DNA of 64,000 bases from Vermamoeba vermiformis (Eukaryota), in assembly GCA_045837725.1 (NCBI GenBank), contig JBEWZL010000152.1, positions 62,001 to 126,000 of the forward strand, read 5' to 3'. The notes under the pieces were generated by a model. It made no database searches. It saw only the letters and a list, made by a program, of their open reading frames with translations, and had not been told where the DNA came from. The first letter of the stretch is position 1. Each line of letters begins with the position of its first letter. Positions 32,334-61,264 of the stretch are shown here, piece after piece. The position numbers and the translations under genes are program-made.

Positions 32334-35300
32334 TTACAACCAAGGCGCCCAACCAGGAAACATTTTGCACAATCTTTCAGGATCTTGAGCCTCGCAAATA
32401 AGTTGCTGAACTTGACCTTCGACCTAAGAAGCGAAAAAAAACAAATTTAGTTTGCGAAATTAAAACGGATCTGGGTCGGTCGAAACTTACACTTAGAGCC
32501 TCGCCTGATTCATAGCCTTGCAATTTTTGCTTCAATCTCAACAAGGTCTTTTCAGCGTCAGCGTTCACTTTGCCACCAGAGCTCGAGTTCGATACTGCCG
32601 GTGCATCTTCTTTGTCGTCAACATCTTGTTCAATGTCCGAGTCATCTCGTTGCAATCTCAACGCCTAAAAAGGGCAAGTTAATATCATATCGGAAATGTC
32701 AATGATGGGAACTATCTTTTGACACGTGTCACTGCCATTTTTTCACGTGTCATAGAATATCGAGCGTTATTTTTTGTACGTGCGGAAGTTTGACAGGTGT
32801 CATTTTGACATGCCAAAGAGGAGTTTGTCTGACACTTACTCTCAAGGGCGATAGCGTCCATTTGTACAAGGGATCGTGAATGAACACTTCTACGATGGTC
32901 AGCAATGACTCGTGTTGATCGCGCAACACTCTGAGTGTCTCTTCGCAGCACCGACGGAACACGCCTTCAACGCCTGTGATGCCCATACCATCGATAATGT
33001 CACGTGTCAGACGGAACGGAACAACTTCGGGTGTTTTGAGGGCTTTACCCTATTTAGTAAAGTGTTAAAATTGTTGCAAACAATGATACTCGTAATGATT
33101 TTACCTGTTCGAACGCGACACCAAGATCGATGTGAACAATTTCTGCGGAAGGAATGTGCAGTAGAATGTTTTGTGCGTGTCTAAATGAATCATTCATGAA
33201 TACTTCGTTCACTGAACGACGATTTGATTTCGATTTTACCTATCACCAAGACCGAGCATGTATCCAACGATTGAGTTCGTTGCGACTGAACGAGTGTAGG
33301 CCAAACGCTTTTCGAACCACTAAAAACGAGAGAAATTAGAGAGATTTCCTTTTTAGGAAAGTGAGTGAGGTTTAGGTACGTACTTCGTGAGGCTCCAGAT
33401 AGTGCTCTAAAAAGAAGTGATGGAAGACAGGATGAAATTTCTCCATGATGCTTTTGAATGCTGTCAACTTGTCACCTTCAGCGGCATTGGTCAATTCTTT
33501 TCTGCATTCCAAAGAGAACAGATCCGACGGTCTGTAGCGGTAATGTGCGCCGACTTTGGGATTTTGAATGGATCCGACTAAGTATGAACCAATAGGCATT
33601 GAATCCATAACCCATTCTAAGAGACCTGCGGCGGGTGTCATCGGAATAATTTTGTAGCCCTTAATGTTCAAGCGTCGTTTTCTGGTCTCAGGATTTTCTT
33701 TCAACAGCACATTGACCATTGAAAACATCTGTTGCATGACCGCATCTTGACGCATGTCATCGCGACCTTTGACAAGTTGTTTGTAGCGTTGACCGTCACT
33801 GCCTTCACATTCGATAATCTTCGGCAAGTTCAAGCCACCTTTGGAACAAAGTCAATTTTTGACACTTTTGACACGAGTTTTTGACATGTGAATAAGCGTC
33901 ACGTGTCATTTTTTGAATGTTTTTTGTGACTTACCAGCAAGGGTGAACTGCGGAACAAATCCTTTCACTGAAATCAATTGACCGCGCTAAATTAAGTAAT
34001 TAATAGCTGTTTCAGTGAACAATAATTCATGCAACGACATACCCAAGGAGCAGTAGGCACGTGGACGTTATTCAAGTTAGCAATAGCTTTCAGTTTGAGC
34101 TTCGTTGGGAATCGAATCGGCTTTGTTTCTTTCTTGTACGGCGTTGCATCGAAGAAGGCAAGTTCAATGTACGCTTCAATGAGCAGCTCGAGTTCGTTGA
34201 TGTTGTCTTTCAACTTGGACTTGCGCAGTTCTTCAATGATGTTGCGCGCTGCACCAATTTTATCCGCGTCATACACGAATCTAAAAATCACGTGGTTAAT
34301 AAATACGTCCATGCCTATTATGCACTGATCGACTGACTTCGAAATATTCCATAAAAGGAAATTTGTGCGGGACTTGGTTCATGAAATTGTTTCGTGAACG
34401 TACCTGTCACGGCCACGCTGATCAGGCCCGACTTTGTTGCCGTTAGATAGGGCAAAGATCTGATAGAGTGAATGATGCGGATGGTCCATCACGACCTTTT
34501 TGATCAATGTCGTTAAGATGTGTTGAAAGACGTTCTCTTGCGCGCTCATTCTTGAGGCAATTTGATAGAACAGCAACAAGAACTTGTGCGACGGGATCTT
34601 GTCAATGTACTTCTTCAAGAACTCGTTGATGGCTTCATTGTTCGGGTTATTAAACCAAAGTGAGCATAATCTGAACACTGCACGAATATCTGCAAAGATA
34701 ACGTTAGCAGTGAAACTTTGCAAAAATTCTTCAGTCACGTGATGGACTTACCATATTTGTCACCAGAGTACAAGCAATGAGCGTAGTTTGTAATCGCGTC
34801 TTGCAAAAATCTGACGCGATCTTCTTCGATGCGCTGAGACTCTTGTCGATCAGTCTCAACTTCCTTTTGCAGCAGTTTGATGTGTCTTTGCAACTCTTCG
34901 ACGGTCGTTTTGGGAATTTGACCTTGCTTCAAAAGCTTGATACATTGCTCTAATTCTTTTTCCTATACGAAGAAATTAGCTACATTGCCTTTTTTGGTAA
35001 AAACGTACCTTTCGTTTTCGCAACTGCTGACTGGCTTCCCATTCGCTAGATTTCAGCTTCGCAATCAAATTTTCGTACAAATTGTCTGCAAATCTAGCAA
35101 GCGTGAAATAACCTGAAAAAAATATGGCGTTAGTGCCGGCATCTCCTTATTAGGGAATTTATCAAAGCGGTTACCTTTTGACTTGTTTCGACCACATTCA
35201 TCGAACACTTTGACAGCACGCTTCAAATAATCTTCAATGATAATGTGTGAACTTTCAGACCGAGTCTGTGCAAGCCACCTGCCTGATATGGTAAGTGCCT

Positions 35301-38300
35301 CGGCCAGTAACTCGACTTTTTGTCTTGTGTCTTCAGTCAATTCTTTGCCAGGCTTTTTCTTGAAGAAACTCTTGCTGGTGTTTTGGTTCAAGGCTTCAGC
35401 GATAAATTTGTCTTTTTCCAAATCGAGAATTAACGATTTTGACATCATTATGGCCTTGTTTTTCTCGCCTTTAGCCCACAGTGTCTTTGCCTCTTCCAAG
35501 AACCACTTAAAATCATCGGACGATAATTGGAGGCTGGCGTTATGTTTCAGCTCAAAAATTGCATTTGAAGCTGTTTGAAATCGACCCGCTTTTCGAGACC
35601 AATGAGCCATTTGCACTAAATAGCTCTTGGATCTGTCATCACGTTCGATAATTTTCAACAAAACGCTGCGTAGAGTTAGCAAGGGCTCCACTAACTCAAA
35701 GTTATTCCGCAAGTTGTTTCCGACACAATTCAAGCTAGCCGTCCAAAGTGACTCCAAAGCAGACATTTCTAGAACGAAATTTAATTAGCAAAGTGTCACT
35801 CGGGAAAATTTTCGATTGACACGTGTCATTTAGATGTCATATCGGAATTGACATACCTTCGCTAGTTGGGATATGTGCATCAAATTTCATAGACACCCCG
35901 TGCAAAGAGTTGGTCGTAGTGCCCGACAAACTAGCATTCTGTGAAACAATGTCTTGCCATCTCAACTTCCAAGCACGCTCAATCTCGTTGAAGAGATTCA
36001 GACGGGTCAACACTGGATAGATATTCTTCGTGCTTTCAATGTTGGTCAAGCTGATGTCATTCACCAAGTGCAAACGAATTTGCTACAACAACGTTAGATT
36101 ATCCATAAATACTATGGCAGGTACTTACTCTAGTCGTGTTGTTAAAGGCCTGTACATCGCCTTCAACTAGAGCTCGCAAGGCGGAGTGCACAGCGAAGTT
36201 AAATCCGATCTGGGGCTGATTTGGCGTGAGATTGGTCGATACAACAGGAACGTTTTGATTGTGCCATTCGCAGTTTCGCCAAGCTTCCTCGTATTGAAAC
36301 TCTGTGCAATGAAGTTACAGTCAGGATATCTGCTTCAGACGGTTCGACTGGACTTACCAGACAGTTCGGGGAACTTGTCAGCACTTTGAATAGCAAAACC
36401 CTTCAAGTACAACTCAACCAAGTGATGATAACCAAGATTTTGTAGGGCAACGAGTAGATCCTGGTGCAACTGAATGACGTCTTGGTTCGATCCGTTAATG
36501 GTTGTGGTAGCTCTCAGGTTAGACCCAGTACGACTGTAGCGCAACGGTTCAGCCTTTGTAACAGCTCTGTGGTGCGTTTGCAAGATTGCATCGTAAGTTC
36601 CGAGCATTTTGGACCAACTGCCTTCGTGCTTGTATTGACGCAAGTCAGCGGAAATGTTCCTACGTAGAATTAGCGACGATATTAAATGAGGCAATAACTT
36701 ACCATCGATCGTAGACTAAGCCATAGATGTAATCAGGCTCGTCAATGTTTGAAAAGATTTGACCAAGAAGCTCGAACACTTCTTTGTAGTTGACCTTCAA
36801 AGCCGAGTTGACGTTCATTTGATCTTCGGACTCGTTGTCAGCCGATCTCATCTTCAAGCTCTGATACTCCTTTTCGTGCCACAATTCGAGGTACAATAGT
36901 GACGTGAAGTACGCGTGACACTGTTGACTGGATCTGGCGACATTGAAGAAATCAAGGGACTTCCAGAATGATATGTCCCAGAGATAAGGCGATCTATACG
37001 GAGCTTTGCTTGCCGTCAATTGATTTGACTCAGACTTGGCTTGCGTCACAATTGACTTGACAGTTTGTTGTCGCAAAAAGTTCAACGCATCCAAGATCAG
37101 CAGTTTTGACTTACAAAGAAAGTGTCAATACACTATCAACATTCCATTATAAATATTTTACCTTGGGTTCAGAGTCCTTGATGAGATTTCGTCCGAGTTT
37201 TCCGGAAAGATCGGCAAAGCCTTGATCAAAAAGATCTTCGAGCAAGTACGGGAAAATGAACTCCGCGAACTCCACGCTGTTTTCACACAACGGAGCAACA
37301 AGCTTGAGCACTTCATCTTGCACGCCGTACTTGCTAACAGCATTGGTGAGTTCACAGAGCCATACCGCGTACTGTTTCTTGTGCGTCCTCCAAAGATATT
37401 CCGCGCTCAAAGTTGATTCCGAAGGAATATCCAGCCCTTGATTTTCCTGCGGTAACAATAATTCATAAGTAAATGTTGATATTAGTGTAAAGTTTCAAAA
37501 CTTACCGAGTTATTTTTGGAGCCAGATTTGGAAGGCTTGTACGGATTCAAATAGTTCTTAGCCTCATTGTCCAAATACTCATAGGCCTCAGCACCAGACT
37601 CAGTGCTTAAAATAGACTTGAGACACTTGCACGACAACTCGATCATCTTCACTTGCGGATGGATCAAGTAAGCGCTCAATCTTTGCAAGATTTCGACCTA
37701 CAAAACGTCAGCCTTCCATCAAAGGAAAGTTGAATACTCGCCGTACCTTCGCTTGCATGAACTTGTACTTGGCGTTGGGAATTTCGATTCCAGCTTGTAA
37801 GGCGTTCTGCACGGATTGATTTGGCATCAAGGCGCTACTGCCGTTTGGAGGCTTCTTTGAGCTAGTTCTGATCAACGGTTTGATGCCACCAAGCTCGCCG
37901 AGGCACTCACCAGCCTTGATTTTAATAGCCTCGTCGTTTTGAGGAGCACAGAGTGTCAGCAGAGACCAAACCAACTCCGCTAAGTCCTCGCGAGCTTTGG
38001 ACGTGTCACTATCGTCTTGCAACAGCTTGCCTAACTCTTCTTTGCGAGTAGCTAATTGTGTCTTCAAGTGCAACAATCGCGAGGATAAATTGACATTGAT
38101 GTTGTACTGCGAGTTGAAGGGATGTCTGATGAACCGTTGAATCTCGTCCTGTAATGTGCACGTGCCTCGCAAAGAGTTGTAGAGCTCGTTGATTTGTTGG
38201 AACTGAGGTAACTCTGGGAACGGATCCATCAGCTTGATGACATCGTTCAGTGAACCGTTAGAGTCCAAAATCAAGAACTTAATGACTGCCAATGCTTGGT

Positions 38301-41300
38301 GGCCAAGTTCATTGTCATGCACCGCGTATTGAGTCAAAGAAGCGATGATCTACGAGTAAATTTTTAGCTTGAAAGTGAGTGTGCAACGGTACTACTTACC
38401 AGCTGCAAATGACGCATCAACTCGACCAAGTTGTTCTTCAACGAAGTCTTGCAAACTTTGCTTAACAGCTGCACTGCCTTTGACTGCAATTCAGGGTACT
38501 GAATCAGACGAAGGATCGTGTGGACAGCGTCACGTAAGATACTCGGCTTGCACACGTAGTCGTCAAGTAAGTCCACGAAGAACTCAATCACAAACGCGAT
38601 GCGTTGACGTTCCTTGACACGACAGGCCTTTGCAAGTTGAATGTTCAAATGAAGCAAAATCTTTTGTACCCGACCCCTATGACAATAGAATCAGTACAGC
38701 GTGGCAATGCATTTTCAGAGGTTATAAGTTATTTGATATTGGCAAGTGCCGATACTTTCGGCTTTGTGCCCAAAACAAACAATCCCTTTTTTAGAATCAC
38801 AATAATAACAAAAATCACTAATAAAATCTTATTGCTGCCGAAAACACCACGTAATTGCAGTGCATTAGCAAGACTAGGACTTACCTTGCTTTGTATAACA
38901 AAGACGGGACGTTCTCTTTGTTGAATCCTTGCTTCAAATGTTCGATGACTTGCTTAACTGGCTTGCTGCTGTACGAAGGTGGATCCGGCTCAAAGTCTTC
39001 AACAGGCTCTTTTGTCTTGGCATCAAGTGGAGGCAAAACAATGGAGTCCAATAAATGAAGAATGATCTGATCGAGCTGTGCTGGAATCAATTTGTTGATT
39101 TCCTCGGCCTTAAGGTAATTCTGCAAGAAATCCTCACAAATAGCAACGCCCAACTTTTTGCTCTTCGTGTAATACAACGGGAACGACAGCGCAAAAATAG
39201 GTGCGAAGTTTTTCCTATGAATCAGAGAAGATTAACATCGCGCGTATTTGGAAATCGCGTTCTTACGTAATTATGGCGGAAATATCTTTCTGAAGGGTCT
39301 TGGCGACGAATTCCAAGTTGGTTTTGTCGAGCAAAAACACGACCTTCGGCAAAATGATCGAGATGTACTTCTCCAAAAACGCCTTCAGATCGCCAGGTTT
39401 GTGAGGTTTGAAGCCGAATAGTTGAATTGGAAACGATTCAATAGGCTTCTTAAGAGTCTTGATCCACTCGCCAAACACAAAACTAATGTGCTCGGTCAAA
39501 AAGTCAAGTTTGTTGCTGTAGCCCATTGCCGTGGACACGTGCTCGATTATCTGTGGAATTAGGTCTGCCAAATCAAGGCGGCTGGAGTACTTGAAGAAGG
39601 TCAAGATAATATCCCGTTCGTTGTCAGTGCTGTAACATGCGATCTCTCCAAGTGTCAATAGAGCTGTCACGCGATGTTCTTCTGAGACAGTTTCATCCTC
39701 TAAACACAAGAATAAGTCATTGTGCAGGTCCATCATAATCAATAGTAACTTACCCTTGAGCAAGGGGCTGAGGAAGTTCTTGACATCTTCGTAGATCGAC
39801 ACGTGTTCAGTGAAAAGCAGGAACAATAGGATTATTCCGCGGCTCATTGCCAATCGCACGCGATAGTCAGGATCGTTGATCATTTGCAAGAAGTGATTTG
39901 AGACTTCATTGTGCTTGCTGACCAAGTTCTCATCTTGTTCTAGCTCGAGCTTCAAAAATTCTTGAATGCACGCTGCCAGATCCAATCTCGTGGACCAATC
40001 CAGCTTTGATTTCTTCCACAACTCAATGAAGATATCCAGCACATTGAAGCACTTTTGCACGAGCTGGACCCACGTGATTGTCTCTTCATCTGCCTCGTTG
40101 AACTTGTCCGTATTTGCCATGCGACTGACGAGGCCATTGAGCAGCTTCAATATCTTACACCTCATTTCTACGTACAGAATTAGCAAGAGTAACGCAATTA
40201 TAAGAATGGTCCTTACCGCTATCACCAACAACTTCAGGGTAGTCCAATGCCTTGCAAAATCGATCGAGGACTTGTTGCGTGTACTTTGCGGAGTTGAAGT
40301 GAATCAAACACTTGCAGATCTCGAACACGAGTTCAATGTTAGATGTCTTGGTCAATGCTCGATACAACGTGTCTTCTATAGTCTTAATGTCAAGTGACGG
40401 GAAGTTCTTGTTCATAGCAATGAGTCGCACGCACGAGTGAATGGACTAAACAAATATTTGTTAAATATACTTCAATAATTTATATTGATTTATACCTTTT
40501 CACTTGACTCGGCAAAAGGAACGCTAGCCATAGAAGATTTGTTATGAGACGTGCCAACCTCGTCAAGATCGATGTCCATGGCTGACTCGGCGTTGTCGGA
40601 AGAAGGCTCCAATCCGCTCATTTTCAGCAAACTGCCCGATGTAGCCTTTTTGACCTCTTCTTTCAGAAAGTTGGTCAAGTAGTTAACGAGCGGCAAAACC
40701 ATTTGCTCGTAACTTTGCATGTTAGGCTCGTTCCAGATCGTGAATAAGTTTTCTAAGTCACTGAAACACTTATTCAACAATCTATAATCACCTTCTAACC
40801 GCCGAACATTTCCTTCGGCAAAAGTTAACATCTACAAACAAGGGTCAGTTAGTTGCCTTATTTGGTAATTTTGAAAAAACTTACGGATTCGAGAAGGTTG
40901 TGTAAAATAGTAGCCGTGTCTTGCTTGCCACTGCCGCTATTATTTTCTTCGTGCAAAGGAGTGTACTTGGACAAAATGAGCGCGAGTATTTGACAGTGGT
41001 GAAGTAACTTGCTCAAAGTGATAAACAGCTTATTTCTATCAACTCCGAGTGTTTTTTTCTACAACAAAAAACATTAGCACGTGGACAATTCCAAATTTCA
41101 TTCATACCTTTGCTTCGATAATTTGCTCACCGTCCTTCAATAAATTATTGGTGATGTTGCGCATGTAATCGACAAGATAGTCTTGCAAGCTGAGCTTCAG
41201 TCCGTCTGATATTCTAAACCTGTGAGACATCTTGGCATCGCGGTGCAATGAAAAACTATTTGCACGACTGATGTAAGTGCCTTCAATAACGCTGTCGTAG

Positions 41301-44300
41301 ATCACATCGACGAGACTGCCCTCACGAGACTCTCGATTTTCAGCGTACAAAATTCTCGTTTCTAATAAGACATTAGCGTTAGTATATTCTCGTAATAATA
41401 GTAGACGCTAGTACCTTCTACTTGAGTCAATTGTGCTTCAAGTTTCATTTGATGTTTGTCAAAGTCAATGGTCATGTCCTCGAGGCACGGAATGCTAATG
41501 CCATGCACAATCGTGTTGGCGGAATGTAAAATCTTCTTTTTGGCGTTGTCCTTGAGCGGCCTCAAATCACCAGCATTTTGTTGGAAATTAAGTTGCAAAA
41601 GTGTAATAATCGCTTGTGACACGAGTTTGGGGTATCTATTGTCTTCCCATTGCACACGTGTCTCGTAGACTTGTCTTAATGAAGAGCAAATCCATTGTAA
41701 ATGCTTTTCTCGGCGAGAAGAGCCTTCTAATGTATCAACTCCGTCTTCACGAAGCTCGTATTTGTTCAAAAATGTTATCAAAAAGTCAACAGCGGTCCTA
41801 TAAAATTATCATTAGAGATGACTTTAAAGCCTTGTTATTAACGCTTACCAAGTACACGGGTGAAAGTCGTTGAAGACGAACAACTTCCACACGTTGCCTT
41901 GAATAGCCGTAACGACCTGCGCGTCAATTAGCTGATGCTCGACGATCAGTTTCATGACTCGCAGAGCACAATCAGCGACGTTGGTATGTGCGTGGGATAT
42001 CTTAAGCACGAGTGCTTCCCAAGCCCTGATCCACGCATCCTGCAAGACCTTCATTTCTTGCGATGTTTGTCGCGTGCCAGAACTACAAAAGAGTTAGGTA
42101 AATTGCTTGTTCTCGGCAAAAAAAGTACTTACAATGAATCTGAAGACTGACTCAGTTGATTACTGTCGCTTAAAATTGACTTGACGTGAATAGCAGAGGC
42201 GATAATAAGCGGATAAAAACATTGCACGACCCAGATTTCTAGTTCAGGTTTCTCTCGCACTCTACAAACAAGTATTAATACTGCTGGGGTCGCACAACAT
42301 ATATTATATAAGATAGATCTCGGTGCTTACTTTTCACTTAGTGAGCTAAATGAGTGAATCAAGCGCATGCACGCGTGGAGATCCACTAACTGCGGGTGCT
42401 TAGAAATCAATATGATGAAGAATTGGATCCTGAAAGATACTACTGTTAGTGCCGAGCTAGAATAAAAAGGCTCTTCATACCAAAACAAGTTCATTGAAGT
42501 CGTGTTGAATATTTGTGACTCGAGGACTTCAACAACATTAAACGTGACTTTGCGCTTCTTTCGTGCTGAGCCTTCACTGCCCTCTGATTGGCCAGAAGAT
42601 GACGTCATTGATTGCGAGTTCTGCGAAGCTTTCTTGCAGAACACATCTGCTGCAAGATCTAGAAACACGAACGCGGAATAATTCAAGCGATATTCCGCCG
42701 TCGTTGAACCCGTCGTCAACTGTTTCAATCTTCCAAGGTACTGTGGGTGCGATGAATATTCATTCAACTCGCGTGTAACGACCCTAAAAGTGTGAAGTTA
42801 GTCGTGGCTTCTTTGGATCTGTCCTTTGAGTTGCTCACTTATAAAGCCCTTCTAGTTCAGGAATACTTCTCTCAACGCCAGATAAGCTCTTGTCCATTCG
42901 CATTTGCAGTCTGAAAAACTGCACGAATTGTTCTTTGAGTTCGGGTGTTCGGGTTGAAGGCCATTTCTTCAATATGATGTCATTTAAGCTCTCTGCTACG
43001 ACTTGAACGCTTCGCCCGTCGTTAATTCCCCAGTTCCTTAGCACGTAATTCAAGCAATAAAATAAGTAGTACGATGTTTTGTTGTCTTGGCTGGTTCAAA
43101 CAAAATGACGTCAGATCCCGCAAATTAATGTCTCATTCTCACGGTACGTACCAGTTGTCTATTAAATAGTTCACGATAATGGTTTTGATCTTGGGAAAGA
43201 ACCCGGCTAAATCGAATTGAAAACTCGTGATAAGTGTCATCAAGACACGTGCGTGTGTAATGTGATTTTTGTCGTTTGGATTGCTTAATAGCTTGCTATA
43301 AGTTGATAGTAGTTCTATAGAGCTGTTAGTTAACAAAAAATTCGGTGTCAAATGGTCATTGATGTGGTGCGGATGTGCTTCACTTCGTCATCCAAAAAAG
43401 CGGATGTATTACCTTGGAATTGATTTCCGCGTAATAGTTGGCAGTAAGCCGGGATTGGGAATAGATAATTTAGCATAATGTTGCTATATTCACTGGCTAT
43501 ATCCGTCACGAGTGTTTCTTCTTTGAGCACATCCGCGATATGTTTGAATATCTTAGGAATGCTTTTGAATAGCCTTGGACCACCTATAATATTAGTTAAG
43601 GAACGTGGTGTTTCATAAGAGCAAATGAATGCGAATGCACGTGCTTAGCAGAAGCAAGTAATTGAGCTGATCCGATCCAGATTTGGATGCAGGCTACAAA
43701 TAATTGAAAGGATACGTGCTTCTATTTGCTTGAAAAATTCTTTCATAACCATGACGACATCCGTAATATTTGTTTGAATTGTCTTCTTTGTAGTGGTAGT
43801 TTTTCCAAGTACTCGTTGGCGCTCTTTGTCAATGCAGTTAATCAGCCCTTCTACGATTTTGTTCCACGTAACCTTCTTAGATAAGTCTATGAAGATAATA
43901 TGAATATTGTAATCATGCTTGCGGTTATAAAAATTGCAAGGGAGGATCTCGATCGGCCTTAGCCTGGACGATTTTGTTTGAAATAATTATCAAAAGCATT
44001 GCTGTAATTTATTAACAGGCTTTTTCTGCGAAACGCTTACCGGCACTCTTGTCATTTTCAATGGTATTTTGATCTATGGCTGAAAAAACTGTCTCGTGCT
44101 TAATTAAAATTTGCAACTGGTCCAATGCATTCTAAATAATATGTTAGTAAATACAGTGGAATACTAAGCTATTTGATTGCCATTAAAAAATAAGAAAAAA
44201 TATTTAGTATTTTTTCCGCCATTTTTTGGATCAAAGGTTTTCCTAAATAAGCGAAGCATTCGTCGTGACTACGAACCTTTCGATCTTTGACTAACGTATA

Positions 44301-46302: not shown

Positions 46303-49300
46303 ATGATGGACTCTATTGAGGAAGAGGATCGTAGTAAGTAAATTAGTAACAATCTTTCTAATGACGTTAGTGCGAGAGATCTCTTTAACTAACTTGATTG
46401 CACTAAATGATTGATAATATATTTTATGTCGTCGTTTACGGAATCCATACAATCGCACGATTATTGAAGGATGTGAGCTGATCATAATATCTTTAGTGCT
46501 TCTTGGCAATCAAAGGCCAAAAAAGCGAAGATTTCCTATTGGTGCAAAGGTAACACTAAATGATTCGTATTTTCAGTTACTGTTGACAGGGAATTGTCGT
46601 TTCATTTTGTAATTTCGTGATCCGAATCTATTTTCGTTCCGTAGTTCTCCTGTGAATAAAACTCTAAAATTTTTAGATTATAATTCTAAAATTAACTAGT
46701 TAATTTGCGAAGCGAAAACCATTTTGAAACTTCGGATGCATTTAAATTTGACACACCGCCAACTAACCGTATTAGAAATTATTCTTTTAATTAAATTATG
46801 CTTTGTAATTGCGTGATGTCAAATGAATTCAGAGCTAACGTATTGTTTGTAGATCGGAGTTGCCGTTGCAGTTTTAGTAGTCGCAGCGGGCCTGATTACA
46901 GGCCTTATCTTGTGGATGAAAAATGACCATCCTAATTATCAACAAATGATATTCGATACTATTAAGCCTGAAGGCGCAAAAGCTACTATTAAAGAACTCA
47001 GTTCTTATCCTCATATCGCTGGATCTCCTGAAAACTACCAAGCAGCCGAATGGGTACAACAAAAGTACGATACAATACAATCACCTTTCAAAATAATTAT
47101 CTTAAAAGCAAAATTTCTCCTTTCTCCTTTTTGTTGGATCCGACAAGCGACTTATTATTAAATCGATGGCTCACTTCCAAAATTATAAAATATAGCAATA
47201 ATATTATAATGTGACTATAGGTTCAAAGAATATGGTTTCCCACATACTTGGATGGAATCTTATCCAGTCCTATTGAATTACCCTATGTCTCGTGTTGTTG
47301 AACTGGTTGGCGGTGCCGCTGAGAACTACTCGTGCGTTATGGAAGAAACTGTACGTTATATTATATATTTACATCATTATAAGAACGCTAAACTAGTTAG
47401 CTTAAATCAAAGCCAGTACGCGATCCGATCGATTTTTTTTTGTTCGAAAAGACGCATACTAATGACTCAATATTATATCTAAACAGTCCTATCAAAGTTT
47501 CGACGGCACTTCAGGCGATCCTCGCGCCATTGCGACCTTCAATGGCTACTCTGCTTCAGGCAACGTAACAGCTGAGCTCGTGTACGCGAATTACGGTCGA
47601 ATTGAAGACTATCAATATCTTGATGCTAAGAATATTTCAGTCAAGTAAGTACTGTTCTTCTTAATGGACTAGAATTTATCAAGCGTTGTTTTTTTTCGAT
47701 CGCCTCAAAAAAGATCCAACACAAAAATTTATTTGTTCTTACAACGCTACCTTTCATAGATACTCCGCAGATAGCTTTATAGTAATAATGACATTTTAAT
47801 TAGAGACAAGATTGTTATCGTTCGTTATGACAAGATCTTCCGTGCCGATAAAGTACACATGGCCGAGAAGCGTGGTGCAAAGGGAGTGTTGATCTATTCT
47901 GACCCCGCTGACGAGGCTAAGGGCACTGTTTATCCGTATGGTCCTTGGAGAGCTCCCACTAGTGTGCAGCGTGGTACTGTTTGGATCGGCAATGGAGATC
48001 CAACTACACCTGGCTATCCTTCCACACCGAACAGTCCTCGCTTGACTTTAGACGAGGCACGTGACCCTGCCAAGAACTTGTGAGTGCATCTATATTTGGG
48101 TCCATTAGAGTTCATGTGACTCAGAAATTGTTTTCGGATCCCTCGATCTAACACGTGTTTTTTTCTCAGGAACACGCCTTTGCCTACTATTCCCGTTCAA
48201 CCTTTGTCTTACTCCGATGCCGAGCCTTTGTTGCGCGGTAAGCAATAAAAAGCTTTTAATCCTCCGACAAGTTCTAACGGTGATTTGTCATTAGCTATTG
48301 GAGGCAACAACATTCCTAGCGATGATTGGCAAGGAGGCTTGAACTTCACGTATCACATTGGCCCTGGCCCCGCTGTAGTATACATGAAGTAAGTCCGTCA
48401 CTATTATTAGACACCTTGGTACGGTGTCCAAAATGACACGTGTCACGATCTGTTCAGTCGACAATAGGAGCGTTTAGTTAACGATGTTTTTCTTAGTATT
48501 CAATTGAATTTCACCGTGGTCAACATTTACAACGTATTTGCTAAGATTCCGGGCTCCGTTGAAGACGACAGACTCGTCCTTGCTGGTGGTCATCGTGACG
48601 CTTGGGTACGGAACGACAATGACCCCATTTCTGCTTAATAGTAGTATTAATTCTATGGTACTATAGACTTTTGGTGCTGGTGATCCTATTAGCGGTACTG
48701 CTACCTTGTTGGAAGCAGCTCGTGGCCTCGGCCAGATCTACTCTCAAGGTAAGACTTTTCATCCTTATTTTTAACTTACCAAGTTACTGTACTTTGTCAA
48801 TGAACCGTAGATATCTTGTACTTGTTGGCTAACGTTGATGGTTAGGCTGGAGACCTCGTCGCACTATCATGTTGTGCTCATGGGATGCTGAAGAGTACGG
48901 CCTCGTCGGTTCAGTTGAATTTGCTGAAAAGCACTACAAAGCCTTGACTGAACGCGCCATCGCTTATCTTAACGTCGACATTGGTGTAAGTAATCAACAA
49001 CTAATTTTTGAAATCTTTGACACGTGTCATTAATCTTCCGATGACCTAGGTCTCTGGCACGGACTTTTTGACCGCTGCCGGCACTCCCAACCTTCGTCAA
49101 ATGATGGTCGATATTACTAAGGCCGTTCCTGGTCCCACTGTTGATAACGTGGCTACTACTATGTTCGAGTTGTGGAGCAAGTACGGCAATGATTCACGCA
49201 CTCAGTTGCCTATCTTCGATACGTTGGGCTCTGGTTCTGATTACACTTCTTTCCTCCAAGTACGTATAAAACAAGAGCATTCAATATCGCTTCTATTGAC

Positions 49301-50197
49301 TGATTCGTGACACGTGTCAAAGTGTCAAAGTGTCATTTGCTAACCCCTCATTTTCTCAGCTCGTTGGAGTTCCTAGCATGCACATTCAGTTCGACAGTGC
49401 CGATGGCAAGTACGAAGGAGTGTATCACTCAAACTACGATAGCTTCTACTGGTACACTCAGTGGGGCGATCCAAATTTCGAGTACCACGCTAGCTTGGCT
49501 AAAGTTTTTGGTATCATCGTTAAAACTTTGAGCGGTACGTAAAAATGTTAAATAATAACGTTATAAAGCATACTAATGATGTTTATTTATAGAGTCTGTT
49601 GTTCTTCCGTTCAACTACATCGATTACGCTGGTGATTTGACTGCCTTTGTCGAGGAGCTTGAGAAAGGCGCCACTTCGAAGTTCAACAAAACTTTCTCAG
49701 AATTTAATATTTTGAAGGACTCTGTAAGTGACAATGATTTATTATTATTGGAATGCAATTTCACTGAACTAACTTTGGTTCATGAATAGTTGACTGCGTT
49801 CAGCAAATGCGCTAAATCGGTCCAAGACGATGTCAATCGATACACCAAGCTTGCTAAGGACGAACGTGACTACGAGATTGAGATCCGCAAGTTGAACGAT
49901 TTGTTGATGTTAACTGAACGCGCTTTCATCGATTACAATGGCCTGCCTAACAGACCGTTCTTCCGTCACATTGTTTACGGTACGGAATACGATTCTCAGA
50001 AAAACCAATTTTGCTAATATTTGATATACAATGCAGCACCCAGCCAATACGACAGCTATTTCGGTCAAGCTTTCCCTGCCATTTCGGACGCTATTTTCAC
50101 TGCGGATCAAGACAGCTTGATCTGGGCTCTAAAATACAACTCGTTGTTCATTGACGGTGCGTCAAACTTCTTGTGCTATCAAAACAGCGATTTTTAA
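46303..50197 (+). CDS. Glutamate carboxypeptidase II / NAALADase-like M28 peptidase (type II membrane, PA and TfR-dimer domains)
   Basis: [98 protein letters not shown] and [16 protein letters not shown]. Start is approximate. Confidence 0.92.
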
Positions 50198-50285
50198 ACT
50201 TAAATTTTATTAAGTACTACTGCTATTGTTTGTTACAATCTAAATTCTGCTTACTTTAATATAGAAACTATGCGTTAAATTATAT

Positions 50286-51200
50286 TCATTGATTGTTGAA
50301 TTCATCAATCATTGCTTTGATTGTGAACGAAGGAATAATTTGCGTAGATGTGAGAACTTGGTGAGTGACAGGTGATGTGTCATTATCTGCAAGCCAAGCT
50401 TCAATTGCACTTCGTTCATAGGTGTGACCGTCAGAGAGTTGAACTGGATCCACCATTAATTGCTTTGTTAGAGGGCAAATCAATGCACTAGGAGCCTTCT
50501 TTTTGATCTCTTGCTTTAATTCAATCTTCTTTTTTGCTGGCTACAATCTAATTAGAGATTGAACAATTAAACTTGCACTTACCTTGACTTCATGCTGTTG
50601 GCCAAATTCATTAAAAGGATCATACTCTCGGCGAAGCTCCTTAATTGCTTCTTCAAATGCAACTTTAACTGCTATTGTTTTGACTTTGAATGCAAATGAT
50701 CCCAAGTCATGACCATCAATCATCAATAATTCTTGGCCAGTAATCTGATCAATTTGAAAATACAATGAGAATATATCTATATATTTCAAATGTTCTTATT
50801 ACTTACACCTTTGTGTTTGAAGGTAGTGGTCAATGAATTTAAGCCTTTCTCTTTTAGCCACTTCACAACATGCTTGGTTTTCCATGCCAATACTCCTGTG
50901 AATTCACTGAATATATCTTTTTTGCATTTGACTAAAAGAATATATGTTTGAAGGCGCTTTGCTTCATTGTAAGACATTTTTAAGCACTGAGTAATGTCTT
51001 GAGTTGTTAGACCAAGCAAGATTTGGCCTGAGATTTCATTTTGGTCTATTCCATGAACAGCCTCATCAGGGGCTTGGATGTCTTTCATAAATTCAACAAC
51101 ATCTGCCACTGTCCAATTTGCTACAGGTGATTTATTTTTTCTCTCTTCTATTGATGCTCTGCTCTTTCTGCTCCAATTTTGAAATTTTCAAATAAGTCTT
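50286..51200 (-). CDS. Tandem SAM-domain plus C-terminal U-box E3 ligase (3' part)
   Basis: VANWTVADVVEFM and LAWKTKHVVKWL SAM starts, and ITGQELL. U-box LICPLTKQLMVDPV..SDGHTYERSAIEAWL..NDTSPVT. Confidence 0.8.
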
Positions 51201-51790: not shown

Positions 51791-52588
51791 TACTTTTAAT
51801 ATCCAATCTTGTCAAATGATTTGGCGGCCTAATCCTGCCACAATTCGTGATGGAGTTCAATCAAGTATTAGTATAAATAATTTGTAGACATTTCTTACTT
51901 ACTGTCAAATTCCACTTCTTCATACTATTAATCAGCTGTAAAAAATTGACAAGATTTTTGTTGGTGATCCATCGAATTTGAAGAAAATAGTGTTAAAAAA
52001 TATATTAAAATGTAGAATAAAATTGATAATTGTACTAGGCCGCAATGACAATCGTAATTATTCAAAAATAAAACTTTTTTAATAACTTACCTTTAATTTT
52101 AATTTTTGTTGCTCCTTTCAGTCTGTTGAATTAATATCTTCTTTGTTGAGCAAGTGCGACTAATCTGTTTAAATTGGATGCCGTTTTTGACCTCTTTTTT
52201 GGTCGGTATTCGCTCGGGTCCAAACTGACCCAAACGAATCCTATTTCACGTTTTTTGGAATTGTTGTTATTAGACATAACTACTGGTGTGTTGTATTCAC
52301 TGTGAGCAGCTCATTTGAACAAAAAAAAACGTAATCGAACCCAAAAAATCTTTTTTGCTTTTCCCACAGAATTATTACTTCTGTTGCTGAATAATTGCTT
52401 CTGGAAGCTCGGCATGATTTAGCTACCATATATTAATTAATTACGTCAAAATTAGCTTTTATTACAATTGTTTCGTTGTGTCTTAACTGACACGGAGTTG
52501 GATGCGCAGTTTGAATTCTCGATTCAAACAGCACTGGTAATTAAATATTTCGTATATATTATATAGACTAGACTTGTAGCTACATATT

Positions 52589-54866
<2,278 letters not shown>

Positions 54867-55211
54867 GACGTGGTGTTGTTGTTGCTAGACTAATTTGAAA
54901 GTAATAACAAGCCAAAAACGCAATTTTTCAATCAACTTTTTACTGCTTTTAGAATTTTTATTGAAATCTCAGGTTTTTGTTCCGATCCGCAGACTTTTCC
55001 ATCAGATCTATATTACTTGATTGTATTGCTAAGGTACATCTTGGCATCGCAGTAAATGTCGGCCAATTTAATGGCCGTTGATTCGATTGATCCTGAAAAA
55101 CTGAAATTTTCATTAAAAGCGCAGTGTTGTTTGATTAAGGGGCGCAATTTTACTTAAAAATTCAGTTCATGTTGTCGTGTGCACTCGGCGATGCCATTCA
55201 CGTTTTAAAAT

Positions 55212-55674
55212 TTATTCGTCTTTGTTCTGATGCGAGCCCGCCGCGCTGTAAGTTGTCTTGTATGGGTTTGCAAGCGGTAATTTGCCTCTTAATACTGACT
55301 CCTTTTCATCTCGGGTCGGAATAATCTCGTATTGGCGCTTGTTCAAGCTATCAAAGCTCAGAGATCAGAATTTTTTTCTTTGGCAATACCAGCGGGATCT
55401 ACGGCTTACCTCGAGCGAGTGAACAAATATCGGCCAAAGGTAAAGACAGCAAGTATGGCAGGCACGCCAACGATGAAAAAGAGAGGATAGGCCTAATTAG
55501 AAATTAGCTATTGAATTTTCGAGTTAATATTGATTGATCCAGAAAGCGAACAGCAATTCAAATTATTTTAATATGCAATTACATTACTATTGTAAGGTAG
55601 TTACTTACTGCTTTGGCTCTGCCACTGAACCAAGCGTGTTTAGGGCTATTCTTTTGGGCGTTCTTTTTATCCAT
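55212..55674 (-). CDS. Small single-pass membrane protein, NDUFA4/COXFA4/B12D-like (absent from the ORF track)
   Basis: Exons 55609-55674, 55410-55492 and 55212-55347 splice in frame with GTAAGT/GTAAGC...TAG, giving MDKKNAQKNSPKHAWFSGRAKAAYPLFFIVGVPAILAVFTFGRYLFTRSSLNKRQYEII...NKDE*. It may extend further 5'. Confidence 0.7.
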
Positions 55675-56238
55675 TGGATTTGGTTTGATAGGCTATTAAT
55701 AGTTATGGTACGTGTTCCAGTTGTATTTATGAAGCAATACCGCTATTTTGCGTCGGTAAATATTTATCTGATTTTGAAATAATTCAAATTTTCTATTTGT
55801 TATCGTTCAAATCCGGCTGAAGTTTCAAAATTCTCATGACTACGAGTACTGAACGTAAAATTGTTCACTTGCGTATATTTTGTATTCGCTTAGCCATTAG
55901 CGGTTGATCAAGATATTTTGGCTCCAATCGATCGAGTTTACGGAATTATATAGCGCCCATACATAAATAATTGTTATTTATGCCGTTGATTTTTGTATGT
56001 TTTTCAAATTGCAGAACCCTCTGGCGGGATCCCTTGACCACAAATCCTCAGATGCTTCCTGTTCCAATAATGAATTAATACTAATAGTACGTTTGATATT
56101 TGATAGCGTTATAACTATCTTCTATCGATGGCAGTAGTTTACCTATTGACGTTTCGTTACACATTGGAAAATTTGTGGCCGTTGAAATCCTTTTGATTTT
56201 AATGGCCAAAAACGACCCAAAAACTATAACAATTTTGC

Positions 56239-56275
56239 GTCTATATTAACGACACAGTCTATATTAACGACCACA
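56239..56275 (+). repeat. Two-copy 18/19-bp tandem repeat immediately before the F-box gene ATG
   Basis: gtctatattaacgacaca followed by gtctatattaacgaccaca. Confidence 0.8.
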
Positions 56276-56278
56276 GTA

Positions 56279-58703
56279 ATGTCGACACAATTTGATTTGC
56301 CTCACGAGATCTGGACGGAGATTTTTAAGTGCTGCGAGGCAGATTCGCTTGCAGCTGATCTTCCTCTCGTATGCAAGTTATTCGCGCAACTAACTGATGT
56401 TAATGAGCTATGGAGAATCAAGTGCATGCAAAGAGGACTGGATCTGACGCTAAAAAAGTCCAATGAAACTTACAAAGCCTTTTATTTTTTCCGTAAGTAA
56501 ATTTAAAATTTGCAAAAATCTTTTTTATTCATATGACTATCATAGTATTAATAAGGCGCAATGATCGGCCACAAATTCATCATTTACGTTCAAATTTAAA
56601 AATAACTTGATCTGGATGGCGTTCTAACATTTTTATTGCGTTCAGAACACCTCGAGTTCTTTCCCTTATTTGGCATTGAAATCGGAAAGACCACCGAGGC
56701 AGAATTGTTAGCTATTAAAGGAGCGATTTCGCAGAACACCTCTCGTTACGTGACGATAAAACAAGTCAATTTTTGGTATAACAACCCTGATAGCGTATTC
56801 AAAATGATGTACTTAGTGAAGGGAATTTATGTTATACCTGAGTAAGTATAAATAAGCCAAATACAAAAAAACCGAGATTTAAATCTGCGATCGAAATTGA
56901 AACTAAGGCTAATTTAAATAGGGAGTGGCAAAAATTTGGGTTGCATTACGAATATGGCTGGAATTCACTATTGGTCTATTTAAAAGAATACAATCATAAC
57001 TACCAGATCAAAGCATTGCCGAGTCAAGAAATGTTTCAAGATCGAGAATGTTTCTCAGCTTCAGTTGAAACCATTGGCAAATGCAAAGACGTGTATTTTA
57101 GTGTTACTTTTGCCTTCAATTATACACCTGGTACGTCGACTACAAAAAAAATAACTTGAAATTTTTGGATCTAATTCGCTTTTTACTTAATTAGGAAATG
57201 TGAACACGAAAGGAACATTGTACAGCATTTCAGTGAACACAAGCTCAAACAAAGAGCAAGAAAAGGAGTGGAAGAGGTATTACGAAAAGAACGTGTTTAA
57301 TACCAAGGGCTATGTTATCGAGAACGAAGAACAAGTGCGAGAAGCGTTAGCAAAGCAATTGCCAAAGATTGCACCGACATTAAGGCGGAAACTTAGAGTC
57401 GTCAAACCAAAACCAAAAATTATTCCATTGGTCGCGGTCGACGGGGTGCAAATTCCAAACGATATTTGGCCAATAATTTTCAGACACACCGATGAAAAAT
57501 CACTTGCGATCAATGTGCCACAAGTGTGCATGGCCTTTAATAGGTTAAGCAGCGACGATCGAGTGTGGGAAGAAAAATGTTTGAAGGCTGGACGAGATAT
57601 GAAGGGCCGTTACGAAGACGAGACTTGGAAACATTATTATTTTACGAGTAAGTCTCATTTATTATTCAGATAATTTCCTTTTATGGTAATAACCAAGTAA
57701 CGATTGAAACACACTTCAAAAAATCGATCCAAATTTCATTAACTTCCTGGCGTCTTGTACAGTTGTACAGATTATTTCCTTATATGGCAATTTCACTCAT
57801 CGATTTCTTATTCGCAGAATTATTGCCGTTATTCCCATTGTTCGGTTGCGTCATTGACCAAACGACTGAAAAAGAATTGCTGGCTCGACCTGACGCCACC
57901 AAAGCAGAGCGAGACCAGTACGCGACGATCAACAAAGTCAATTTTTGGTTCAATAACAGCGACAAGGTGTTCAAAATGATGTACATTGTACGCGGCATTT
58001 ATCCAATTCCTGAGTAAGTAATCGTCAATAGAAGCAACTAACATTCTTACAATATTATCAATTAGCTATAATAATATTATAAATTAACGAATTTATGTGA
58101 CCTTACATCTCATTATAACAATTAATTGCTTTGTTATGGTAGCTTAAAATTAACGTCTTTTTGCCGTACAGCGAATGGCTCAATCTCGGCATTAATTTCG
58201 AAAAGAGTTACGTGGAGTACTTGGAATTCTTCAAATACAGACTGGGCAATTATCAAGTCACCAACGCTCCGTCGCAGCAAAACCATTCGTTCATGCCAAA
58301 GGCCAGCTTCAACGCTTCAGTCAACGTCATTGCTCGTCACAATGAAACTTTTTATATGATGACTTTCATGTTTGGCTACGTGCCAGGTACGTTCACGAAA
58401 AATAATGAAATTTCATGCGTTTTAAATTTACAGCGATCCGGACTTACAACTCATAACTTTTTTTCCTAATTAGGCAATACTCAAACCAAAAATACATTGT
58501 ATAGTATTTCAGTCCGCGGAGCGTACAATCCTAGCGAAGTGGGCGAGTGGAGAACGAATTACGAAGATCACGTGATAATTCACAAAGATCCAGTTGAAGA
58601 TCCCGAACTACCTGCAGATAACCCTGAGTACAATACGAATCAAAATAATCATTGGGAACCTGCTGCTGATGTTGATGTTGATTTTGACGAGTTATTTACA
58701 TAA
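56279..58703 (+). CDS. Protein built from two tandem (F-box + unknown domain) units
   Basis: LPHEIWTEIF...LPLVCKLF..LW and IPNDIWPIIF...VPQVCMAF..VW. Each is followed by FPLFG..I..TTE.ELLA, VNFW.NN.D.VFKMMY.V.GIY.IPE and TLYSISV. Confidence 0.8.
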
Positions 58704-58825
58704 ACGTATTTTGTCCAAAAGAATTCTAATATGAGCACATCGAAGACGAAGGTAAGCACAAAGACTGAGACGCGTTGCGATTTTCAAACAAAAATTTTAT
58801 ATTCTACTACAACACAATTTCGCAA

Positions 58826-61264
58826 TTAAATATTATTATTTACATTTTCTTCGTCGCTGTTATGACTTTCAGTTCCAGATTCATCGGACTCAGAAGCGCT
58901 AGTCTTGTCGTCGGATGCGCTCGGCTCATCCGCAACAGTAGTTTTCGGATCAGGCATGGTAATCGCGACTTCACCTTCGTTCATATTTGCACCTTGCACT
59001 TCTTCCTTTAGTGGCGACTCCAATTCCACTGAGCGATGAGTTTCCGTAGCCTGACTTAATTGTTGGAGTGGTGTGTTGGCCGTACTTGTGACCGATGTGG
59101 CGGACCCAGCACGGAGACGAGCAGTTGATACTGCTTTAGGAAGACTAACGCTCGACGGTCTCCTCGCATTGCCATCTTAATTGGAGGTCAGCATTTGACA
59201 CGTGTCACAAGAAAACTCGTAAAAGTACGTACCTCCGGAGCTCGATTTCTTCGAAATTGGGATTGAGAACGCTAACACTTTGAATAGACTAGTTGATAAG
59301 AACATAATGAAGCCAAAAGTATCTCCAGCGACGAGTCCATATGGATAAAAGGCGTAGTCTGTCGCTTGGAATATCAAGTACAATATAATGCCCAATTGAA
59401 AAGCTGCACTTGCGTATAACAACTTAATCGCCTATATATATATAATCAAATTGTAAAAATATTGAAGAGTTTTTCTATAGGAATATTAAACTACCTTATA
59501 TTTGCTCTTAGTCTTCTCGGTTTGGACCCGATTTTGAGTCGAGTTCAATGTCTTCATTAATGTATGGCCGTAGTAAAAGAAGAAAATTGACGTGAACGAC
59601 AGCACCACGCCATAGAATACTGATATAACTATAATAAGGGTTGACAGTGGACCTTCGCCGATGCCTCGCAAAATGGCGATCGTGAACTCGAAGGCCCAAA
59701 TGATCGATACAACGACGTAGAATGGAATCTGAGCCTTGTCCAAAAAAGTTACAGTTTTGCTCTTTTGTTTGGTCAGAAGTTCTTTCCTAAAAAGGAAATA
59801 ATCTATTTAGCGTATGTATACTTCCTAATTCATGTATGATTTTGATTTCTAATCAAATTCTGAAAATATTATTCGATAGTGATATGTAAAAATAATCGGA
59901 GGAGTGTCTTTCTCACAGGAAAACTTCGGATGTGCTCGAGCATTTTTGATTCAGTATCTTACCAATACAACGTGATCAAGAGCGAAGTGGCGGGTATAGC
60001 TGGAATACTGATAGTATACAAAATATGGCTAGCAGCTAACGGAAAAATAGCCCGACTGCCCCATGGATCAACCGCTACGAAGATCGCACGTTCTAATTTG
60101 TGCAATTCATTAATTAACCTTCCACAGGCCAGTATATGTGATATCATACCTAAATTGGCAAATAATTCTATCCACAAGCACACCTGAGGAATCGATCGTT
60201 CTGGTCCAAATGCACGAATAAACGTCTAAATTTATCGTTAGCCGGATGTCACCTTGTTTTGACGAGATATGATAAATAAATATTTATAAATACTACGTAC
60301 TGATAGCTTCCATGCAGCTAATATCGCTACTGCTAACGCGTAACTGCCCAAGACTGCGCTTATGACTGGAAATGCTGCAGAGTTGTACGCCTCTTCCCAA
60401 GGATTCGGATCTGTTCATTAATTTCCTATTAATATATTGTGCAATATACGAGGAAATGGGCAAGACTATGATTGATTTGATTTGCTGCGAAGACTAAATT
60501 TCGTTCACAAAAAATGGTTGGATTTGTTAAGTTTGCGTTTAAATTTTTGTTGAACCGTACCATCAAAGCCTATTTCAATTACTACAGTAATATTATCAGC
60601 ATCGGATTGCATATAGTTGATAACTTTCTGAAAATCCTTGTATGAGACATCCCAAACTGGTATGTTGATGTCGGAGATATCAGACCCGTCTCTTAATCGC
60701 TCTAATATGCCAGGAAATGCTATTAAATATATTAGCACATTTGATTAATCAAGAAGTAATTAAATAGCAATAATTACGTACATGAAAATCGCGCGCAATT
60801 CACATAGCCGATTATACCACGACCTATTTGACTTCTTATTTGGTCTTCAGTTCTATTGATGAATATTTAATCGTTAGAAAAAGCGTAATAATTAATTATT
60901 TAATGATTTTGTAACGGTCGGGATCGGATCTGTAAATTGTCTAGTCTTTGAAGACCAATGAATACATACGTTCCATGTCCTATGAAGCAAGAGAGTATAA
61001 TATTTCCTTCCGCAGGCCCAGCTCGGTCATTAAACGTAGCTGCCAGCCTCGATCTAATTGGCTCGGATGTGTTTCTGGGTGGAAAAAGCTGTTCAGGCCG
61101 AAATCCGACGTCGATTAATTAATTATTTTTACTTACATCTGATTATTTCCATATCGTCTAATCCACGGACTATTGTAAAAACCAGCAAGCTCTGGAGGTT
61201 CGAGTACTGTTAACGCATTGTTTAAAGCAATAAATACTAATAATACATAAATACAACGAGCCAT
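58826..61264 (-). CDS. Multi-pass (7TM-like) membrane receptor with signal peptide, PA-like ectodomain and acidic Ser/Thr-rich cytoplasmic tail
   Basis: Signal MARCIYVLLVFIALNNA, INIPVWDVSYKDFQKV (PA-like end), DPNPW, then about seven hydrophobic segments including AVDPWGSR and LLITLYW. Confidence 0.7.

Follow-up and report, generated by a model that had tools for sequence, protein, structure and literature searches.

A 12-letter palindrome, TGACACGTGTCA, occurs exactly six times in a 64,000-nt stretch of Vermamoeba vermiformis DNA (contig JBEWZL010000152.1, positions 62,001 to 126,000; referred to as the window and numbered from its first letter), at 32720, 35817, 48434, 49018, 49308 and 59196. 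All six copies lie inside predicted introns, spread over three genes. The same six positions had been reported, as exceeding chance, in a first-pass annotation made from the sequence alone, and this is borne out: none of 100 dinucleotide-preserving shuffles of the window contained a perfect copy. The palindrome recurs non-randomly, is clustered with half-sites that are balanced between the strands and has no repeat homology around it. Two relatives carry the element, as half-sites or as a read-through protein compatible with it, in introns orthologous to those of the window; it is thus real, non-random and apparently conserved. We put at about even the chance that it is a selected site for a dimeric protein on DNA, with a geometry like that of TALE-homeodomain sites and arranged in small intragenic clusters. 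The palindrome is a well-supported motif rather than a demonstrated system.

The window contains no N and is approximately 41% G+C. At up to one mismatch to TGACACGTGTCA there are 10 sites, against 0.14 expected, and at up to two mismatches 16, against 2.55 expected; these comprise six perfect copies, four with one mismatch (two of them in non-coding DNA) and six with two mismatches. Successive perfect copies are 3.1, 12.6, 0.6, 0.3 and 9.9 kb apart. The central CACGTG is itself frequent in the window (31 copies), which might suggest an artefact of chance or base composition. To this we attach almost no credence: the shuffles already refute it, and CACGTG stands at background level (5 copies in 12.8 kb) in introns other than the seven that carry the motif, listed below. 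A literature search that covered main texts found no account of TGACACGTGTCA or of such an intronic element. The exact 12 letters appeared only in primers from Ebola work. Among the matches listed for its 10-letter sub-words, all were primers or plant G-box work and none was about introns, and a search for palindromic motifs together with introns and amoebae returned unrelated papers only.

Introns were predicted by a Viterbi gene finder written for this analysis, for which long open frames of the window served as the training set. The model yields 19 genes and 120 introns, with a median intron of 71 nt, and divides the window into intron (13,455 nt, 21%), exon (35,999 nt) and intergenic DNA (14,546 nt). 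The window is gene-dense, with many short introns of the GTAAGT...CTAAC...YAG type. The first host is a large minus-strand gene in which single exons match the FAT, PI3/PI4-kinase and HEAT domains of Pfam, and whose relatives are named ATM. The second, on the plus strand at 46.4-50.2 kb, has a PA domain (Pfam); its closest relative, the protein P0199, is named N-acetylated-alpha-linked acidic dipeptidase (GCPII). The third is a small minus-strand gene at 58.8-59.9 kb (~1.1 kb) with a below-threshold match to THH1/TOM1/TOM3, referred to here as the membrane-protein gene. The seven motif introns are 32665-32839, 33839-33934 and 35769-35856 in the ATM-like gene (together its predicted introns 20, 26 and 28 of 29), 48389-48496, 48986-49049 and 49260-49359 in the GCPII-like gene (introns 7, 10 and 11 of 14), and 59176-59232 in the membrane-protein gene (intron 3 of 3).

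The spliced GCPII-like prediction is identical to the 729-residue P0199 at 650 of 726 positions and is ungapped at 13 of 14 junctions, including those of the three motif introns; because the contig of P0199 is just 2,840 nt long, its coding sequence must be without introns. Copy 3 (48434-48445; like all six copies, strandless) lies in 48389-48496, whose junction matches P0199 at 16 of 16 residues without a gap, copy 4 (49018-49029) in 48986-49049 (16 of 16) and copy 5 (49308-49319) in 49260-49359 (14 of 16). In the ATM-like gene, the junctions of 32665-32839, which contains copy 1 (32720-32731), and of 33839-33934 fall inside ungapped blocks in five of the five homologues tried. The intron 35769-35856, with copy 2 (35817-35828), is called by the gene model only, the homologue alignments being weak there. 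Copy 6 (59196-59207) is in the 57-nt last intron of the membrane-protein gene, 59176-59232; this stretch is in frame and must be spliced, because it contains a stop and the conserved protein frame resumes downstream. Elsewhere, four of five junctions of a gene for UDP-glucose pyrophosphorylase (UGP) agree with the 99%-identical protein P0080, which gives some indication of how often the model errs. The model made errors, swallowing one piece of a UGP exon and two small ATM exons at 33050-33383. The false 334-nt 'intron' at the latter position contains two conserved exons (~52 residues), as judged from a related metagenome locus (L001, described below) and from a 52-53-residue gap against five homologues.

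Within its introns the palindrome is placed centrally and without a fixed position: the 5' splice site is 25-108 nt away and the 3' end 20-55 nt, and all six copies precede the branch point. The three motif introns of the ATM-like gene measure 175, 96 and 88 nt, against a median of 53 nt for the other 26 (Mann-Whitney p 0.017), as if carrying a payload. The signal for intron-mediated enhancement is found in a promoter-proximal first intron, close to the transcription start; no motif intron is a first intron.

Among 6-letter words in the interiors of introns (12,375 nt in 120 introns), the half-site of the palindrome, GTGTCA/TGACAC, shows the strongest enrichment, with 27 occurrences against 3.7 expected (z 10.4). 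Its density per kb is 2.16 in introns, 0.72 in exons and 0.48 in intergenic DNA. The excess is local: 21 of the 29 intronic half-sites fall in the seven motif introns (688 nt in three genes), and the other 113 introns (12,767 nt) hold eight, the background number. Because the half-sites are concentrated in this way, the element is not general to introns or to long genes. The proposal of a general intron-embedded system of long gene bodies is not supported, with just 7 of 120 introns and 3 of 19 genes involved, one of these genes being ~1.1 kb long. Relative to the host gene, 14 half-sites are in the sense and 15 in the antisense orientation, as expected for a site that acts at the DNA level, and the palindrome together with this balance (14/15) supports the dimeric DNA-binding protein proposed in the first-pass annotation. 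Isolated half-sites share an extension, with a consensus of roughly CAAAGTGTCA(A/T), in which the 5' extension CAAAG is their own.

The densest cluster occupies the ATM intron 32665-32839 (minus strand). In addition to one palindrome it contains a one-mismatch copy at 32791-32802, which reads TGACAGGTGTCA and has a CAGGTG core, a partial copy CACGTGTCA at 32744-32752, TGACAC at 32830 and further TGTCA/TGACA words, giving five 6-letter and eight 5-letter half-sites. It holds the top 120-nt window overall, with seven hits against a null maximum of five. The intron 33839-33934 (minus strand) is a cluster without a perfect palindrome, with CACGTGTCA at 33900-33908 and TGACAC at 33860 and 33869; both partial copies, at 32744 and 33900, keep CACGTG and one TCA flank and have lost the outer TGA. 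In 35769-35856 (minus strand) the palindrome is accompanied by GTGTCA at 35793 and by TGTCA/TGACA at 35835 and 35849. In the GCPII-like gene, two tandem AAGTGTCA half-sites 8 nt apart (49322-49335, plus strand) lie directly 3' of copy 5, and an inverted pair, GACACC / GGTGTC with a 7-nt spacer (48407-48431, strandless), lies just upstream of copy 3. A core-only copy, ACACGTGT (48151-48158, strandless), is in a further intron of this gene, 48080-48169, with a P0199 junction of 16/16. The near-copies had all been described as intronic. This is true of those at 32744, 32791, 33900 and 48151, and not of that at 2434, which lies 7 nt past a predicted stop.

Three consecutive open frames at 30801-32156 on the minus strand suggest a gene that starts ~200 nt downstream of the ATM stop. 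The intron 32665-32839 would then be ~0.5-0.7 kb upstream of the start of that gene and could belong to its upstream region.

A second word, ATCGGAA, accompanies three of the six palindromes at a distance of 7-25 nt, on one strand or the other: at 32689-32695 (plus strand, 25 nt from copy 1, within ATATCGGAA from 32687), at 35841-35847 (plus strand, 13 nt from copy 2, within ATATCGGAA from 35839) and at 49036-49042 (minus strand, 7 nt from copy 4). Three of its 10 occurrences in the window thus fall within the 688 nt of motif introns (p 8.5e-5), and ATATCGGAA is found twice in the window, each time in a motif intron. Such variation in distance and orientation is what binding-site modules typically show, and is not what copies of a single element would show. 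Another word enriched in introns, CGGATC, was considered as part of the element and rejected, since it is enriched throughout the window, exons included. CGGATC/GATCCG occurs 57 times, alike in all sequence classes and at ~3x the base-composition estimate (~20), which looks like a genome-wide word bias.

In an all-against-all blastn of the 120 predicted introns, motif introns match one another only over 12-15 nt, and the statement that the flanks are not homologous therefore holds. An inverted-repeat scan of the seven motif introns found only pairs of motif words and no common terminal inverted repeats. On inspection, no consistent flanking direct repeats or target-site duplications were seen around the palindromes, only 49018 having a nearby 6-letter direct repeat. 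The first-pass annotation had named homologous flanks and a transposon footprint as what would speak against a motif, and neither homologous flanks nor terminal repeats nor target duplications were found. Introners of algae and fungi have copies that are alike over their whole length, and those of the DNA-transposon kind have terminal repeats and target duplications. A mobile intron of the introner or miniature inverted-repeat transposable element (MITE) type was accordingly rejected, the copies here not being alignable over their length and being without terminal repeats or target duplications.

A less direct trace of mobility was also weighed. The copies could be relics of mobile elements (fused termini, excision footprints or a short palindromic insertion), the half-sites former subterminal transposase sites, and the introns merely places that tolerate insertion. 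The identity of 12 perfect letters at six loci with few degenerate copies would fit this, as would the length of the ATM motif introns, which exceeds that of the gene's minimal introns. Subterminal repeats of DNA transposons, moreover, consist of a clustered short word in both orientations and may resemble the half-site clusters described here. We nevertheless regard such an origin as very unlikely, as no two motif introns are homologous beyond 12-15 nt, common terminal inverted repeats and target-site duplications are missing, and two relatives, one of them ~53% identical in the adjoining protein, have the element in the orthologous intron. Such orthologous presence points to old age and a maintained sequence, not to recent insertion.

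The first of these relatives is L001, a 1,301-nt contig and the sole locus with an ATM kinase exon from a scan of metagenome contigs. It shares 94% protein identity with the window's ATM exon, and 386 of 455 nt are identical. In its intron orthologous to 33839-33934 only 68 of 107 positions align, yet three 6-letter half-sites are found there, as two CAAAGTGTCAA and a single TGACAC, in addition to a TGACA; one GTGTCAA occupies the same aligned position in both introns. At 362-369 of L001 the apparent ATM intron donor is GTTAAT, not of the GTAAGT type, and the sequence upstream is unalignable to the window exon, so exon structure may differ there.

The second relative was found with the last exon of the membrane-protein gene among 1.84 billion representative proteins. 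P0201 (157 residues; a cluster mate, P0204, is identical over this stretch) is an open frame called straight through the orthologous 57-nt intron, and its adjoining protein tail is ~53% identical to that of the window. Read through, the window gives ...KKSSSG G T Y F Y E F S C D T C Q M L T S N stop D G N A RRPSS... and P0201 gives ...KKSSSG - T Y L S N F F R D T C H F L T F E E G I N D RRPSS.... The residues kept are T-Y (the GTACGTA donor), D-T-C and L-T (the CTGAC branch point), and the others differ. R-D-T-C-H in P0201, against C-D-T-C-Q in the window, is compatible at the protein level with xxT GAC ACG TGT CAx, that is, with all 12 letters. The chance of such in-frame compatibility in an 18-codon stretch is ~1e-5, as estimated from intron base composition. 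As the adjoining tail is just 53% identical, the word would appear to be kept about as well as the splice signals in this diverged relative. For the ATM-like gene, 2 of 356 tblastn segments from homologues span the motif site, both as gapped extensions and hence uninformative. P0199 had no relatives in the prokaryote genome collection. A 21-letter pattern of the two words gave three matches in prokaryote genomes, all bacterial metagenome-assembled genomes and no more than the chance estimate of ~8, and was discarded.

In contigs of the DNA run X1, at least six rows agree with the window across the motif and a few adjoining letters only, beyond which they diverge. Two of these contigs link a segment that ends with the 32720 copy to one that begins with the 49308 copy, 4 or 16 other letters separating them, and one contig continues into an apparent branch point and 3' splice site. 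We infer that these contigs represent further motif loci in that organism, with one or two copies each. Compared with the window at 30501-50500, X1 shows ~300 single-letter differences and ~30 small indels over these 20 kb, which suggests a different strain or a heterozygous individual. The RNA-seq runs X16-X18, which carry the species label of the best-matching DNA run, have 8, 3 and 13 reads on 30501-50500 (at least three genes), mostly as partial fits and with no splice joints; the label may stand for another organism, or the organism of the window may be a minor part of these samples. Runs of five other organisms and several water metagenomes contain 5-23% of the words sampled from 40501-50500, and no RNA run was among those listed as sharing them. 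The presence of shared words in unrelated runs hints that the organism or a near relative occurs there as a companion.

A role in the pre-mRNA has to be considered, as the six copies are without exception transcribed as intron RNA. As a palindrome the word gives the same RNA whichever strand is transcribed. Self-complementary copies might pair between introns, the ATM and GCPII transcripts holding two and three perfect copies, or a dimeric RNA-binding protein might tune splicing; the word always stands between the 5' splice site and the branch point, and in the 57-nt intron it is conserved alongside both. This remains unlikely in our view. Isolated half-sites favour neither the sense nor the antisense orientation (14 to 15), the lone copy in the membrane-protein gene is without a pairing partner, and a hairpin of the 12 nt would have a stem of only 4 bp. 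Folding gives no added stability relative to shuffles, with z-scores of -1.50 to +0.86 for the seven motif introns and -3.01 to +0.90 for six control introns, so that the motif introns fold no better than the controls. The window has no Rfam match at the gathering score and none in a tRNA scan.

The restriction to introns holds for the perfect copies in the window and is not established as a rule. The first-pass annotation had placed the palindrome only in introns; this is true of the six perfect copies. Two one-mismatch copies that it had missed, at 16388 and 32998, are in predicted exons, the latter encoding a kinase motif shared with L001. Exons make a poor reference, since one frame of the word contains TGA and the other frames fix three or four residues. 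Of the non-coding sequence 48% is intronic, so the chance of finding all copies in introns rather than in intergenic DNA is 0.48^6 = 0.012 if the copies are independent, and 0.48^3 = 0.11 if three loci are counted. The clusters lend the restriction some support: among the five densest 120-nt windows for TGTCA/TGACA, four are intronic or overlap an intron, one is exonic and none is intergenic, and only 0.5% of shuffles reach five hits in one such window. The exonic one (63191-63310) has four TGTCA/TGACA words and belongs to an exon of the Kelch gene; it is probably a coincidence of coding sequence.

An information-rich word that is mostly perfect (six perfect copies against two non-coding copies with one mismatch) and has no clusters in intergenic DNA could also be the site of an architectural DNA-binding protein, with a boundary, nucleosome-phasing or replication-related function, tolerated mainly in introns, rather than that of a gene-specific regulator. 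This idea of the earlier annotation, to which we give some limited weight, would accord with the conservation of the word in a minimal intron of a distant relative and with the X1 contigs (at least six rows) read as further motif loci; six copies per 64 kb, if typical, would amount to thousands per genome. Yet the word is confined to 7 of the 120 predicted introns and to 3 of the 19 genes, and none of the 55 introns predicted in the first 32 kb carries it. The spacing of the copies is irregular (0.3-12.6 kb), the preference for introns over intergenic DNA is statistically weak in the window, and no CpG depletion hints at a link with methylation. Observed/expected CpG stands at 1.28 for introns, 1.04 for exons and 1.18 for intergenic DNA, and hence there is no sign of mutagenic CpG methylation, the only kind of mark to which this indirect test responds. 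With values of 1.04-1.28 in all three classes, the suggested targeting of methylation finds no backing. Nor is the wider proposal, a chromatin and methylation system of long gene bodies, supported as a whole (3/19 genes, CpG not depleted).

We return to the dimer site as the best explanation. A symmetric dimer of a sequence-specific protein would bind double-stranded DNA at the palindrome, each half of which is TGACAC. CAAAGTGTCA(A/T) half-sites and ATCGGAA would join the palindrome in binding-site clusters of 60-170 nt within a few introns, which offer unconstrained space inside the transcription units of a gene-dense genome, and the clusters would be intragenic regulatory modules for the host gene or a neighbouring one. 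A selected site for a symmetric dimer is suggested because the word is a palindrome, its half-sites are strand-symmetric, the second word varies in placement, repeat homology is lacking and the element is retained in orthologous introns. Protein binding, the family of the protein and the regulatory output are what we infer beyond this. The candidate readers are, first, TALE-homeodomain proteins (MEIS/PKNOX/TGIF) and, second, bHLH or bZIP proteins on the CACGTG centre; a TALE-type reader would account for about half of the confidence that we place in a dimer-binding site. Presumably, PKNOX proteins also recognize a site of the TGACAGGTGTCA type.

All six copies contain two inverted TGACA cores with a 2-letter spacer. 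The TALE-like spacing TGACA-NN-TGTCA, to which the first-pass annotation had drawn attention, equals that of the MEIS3 SELEX site, TGACAGGTGTCA (PMC5449588), and that of TGACAGCTGTCA, on which two TGIF1 homeodomains were crystallized (PMC6158717). TALE genes are reported in Amoebozoa (PMC6219170), and the UGP exon in the window has its nearest named relatives in Filamoeba, Arcella, Balamuthia and Acytostelium (67-69% identity), with Trichoplax and red algae also among them, so that it places the lineage only tentatively in Amoebozoa. The exact MEIS3 word, with a GG spacer, is found only as the variants at 32791 and 16388. The table that gives the MEIS3 site also includes a HES5-type site, GACACGTGCC (PMC5449588). 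As to the second candidate, CACGTG is present in 6/6 perfect copies and in two partial copies (32744 and 33900); these two keep the E-box over the outer flank, and a bHLH or bZIP reader is therefore possible. CACGTG is absent at 32791 and at the AAAGTGTCA companions, which are non-palindromic GTGTCA sites (eight in the window's motif introns, three in L001). Half E-boxes are not normally bound by bHLH or bZIP E-box factors. Sites of the T-box, nuclear-receptor, Ndt80, WRKY and Sum1 types were compared and set aside, each having at least one core mismatch.

Several observations weigh against this explanation. The spacer is CG in all six perfect copies and is GC or GG/CC in the published TALE sites compared here; the CG centre makes the palindrome fully symmetric and so creates the CACGTG core. 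The partial copies at 32744 and 33900 favour an E-box reader, and the AAAGTGTCA sites and the CAGGTG variant favour a half-site reader, so that both families are candidates. TALE genes in the host are putative, being drawn from literature on Amoebozoa at large. For a transcription-factor site, perfect copies are unusually numerous relative to degenerate ones. No cluster was found anywhere in the 14.5 kb of intergenic DNA, the expected place of promoters, which is odd for an ordinary regulatory site. In addition, the motif introns of the GCPII-like gene do not exceed their neighbours in length (p 0.44), and there is no evident functional link among the three host genes.

The steep excess of perfect copies and the lack of an intergenic cluster keep bolder readings alive. 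We hold it as a tentative possibility, short of probable, that this letter-perfect, lineage-conserved palindrome, maintained in minimal introns as stringently as the splice signals, is an undescribed intron-resident element of a poorly studied protist lineage, either a genome-wide architectural-dimer site tolerated only in introns or a self-complementary RNA word through which the introns of a transcript pair and their splicing is coupled. If intron-specific throughout the genome, it would be a new kind of intron-borne signal. If the dimer-site explanation is true, a protist that has hardly any regulatory annotation puts high-information sites in introns of 57-175 nt and keeps them across species, and introns would be a main seat of cis-regulation in a compact genome. 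If a TALE homeodomain is the reader, the dimer-site geometry known from animals would be far older than animals. The 12-letter duplex would provide a ready handle for retrieving the factor.

Regarding the rest of the window, of 10 large exons tested (in 1-30000 and 52000-64000), 7 are without a Pfam family at E 0.001. The other three belong to a Kelch and EGF protein (62861-64000), the UDP-glucose pyrophosphorylase (52589-53041) and an F-box-like protein (57191-57673).

Among known systems, introners are like this element in that a sequence recurs within spliceosomal introns of unrelated genes, and unlike it in their whole-length identity, where here 12-15 letters are common. TALE dimer sites are closer, having 12 letters with inverted TGACA cores two letters apart, and the lone TGACA/TGTCA words near the palindromes can be likened to TALE monomer sites; the CG centre of the palindrome and the CAAAG extension of the isolated half-sites set the element apart. 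E-box/G-box sites of bHLH and bZIP proteins share the central CACGTG, and the plant G-box/abscisic acid-responsive element (ABRE) GACACGTGTC, which appears in plant promoter papers among the matches listed, equals the 10-letter core of the palindrome. They differ from an element that has many AAAGTGTCA companions without the CAC half and one intronic CAGGTG variant. Intronic enhancers of animals and plants resemble the clusters described here, in which several copies and a second word lie within ~100 nt in varying order, spacing and orientation, and are similar also in that sites persist in orthologous introns even as the sequence around them changes. Unlike them, these clusters have tiny hosts (57-175 nt) that are never first introns, and the core is kept perfect. 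The element is nearest in kind to known dimer sites and intronic site clusters, and its unusual traits are the centre of the palindrome, its perfection and the very small introns that host it.

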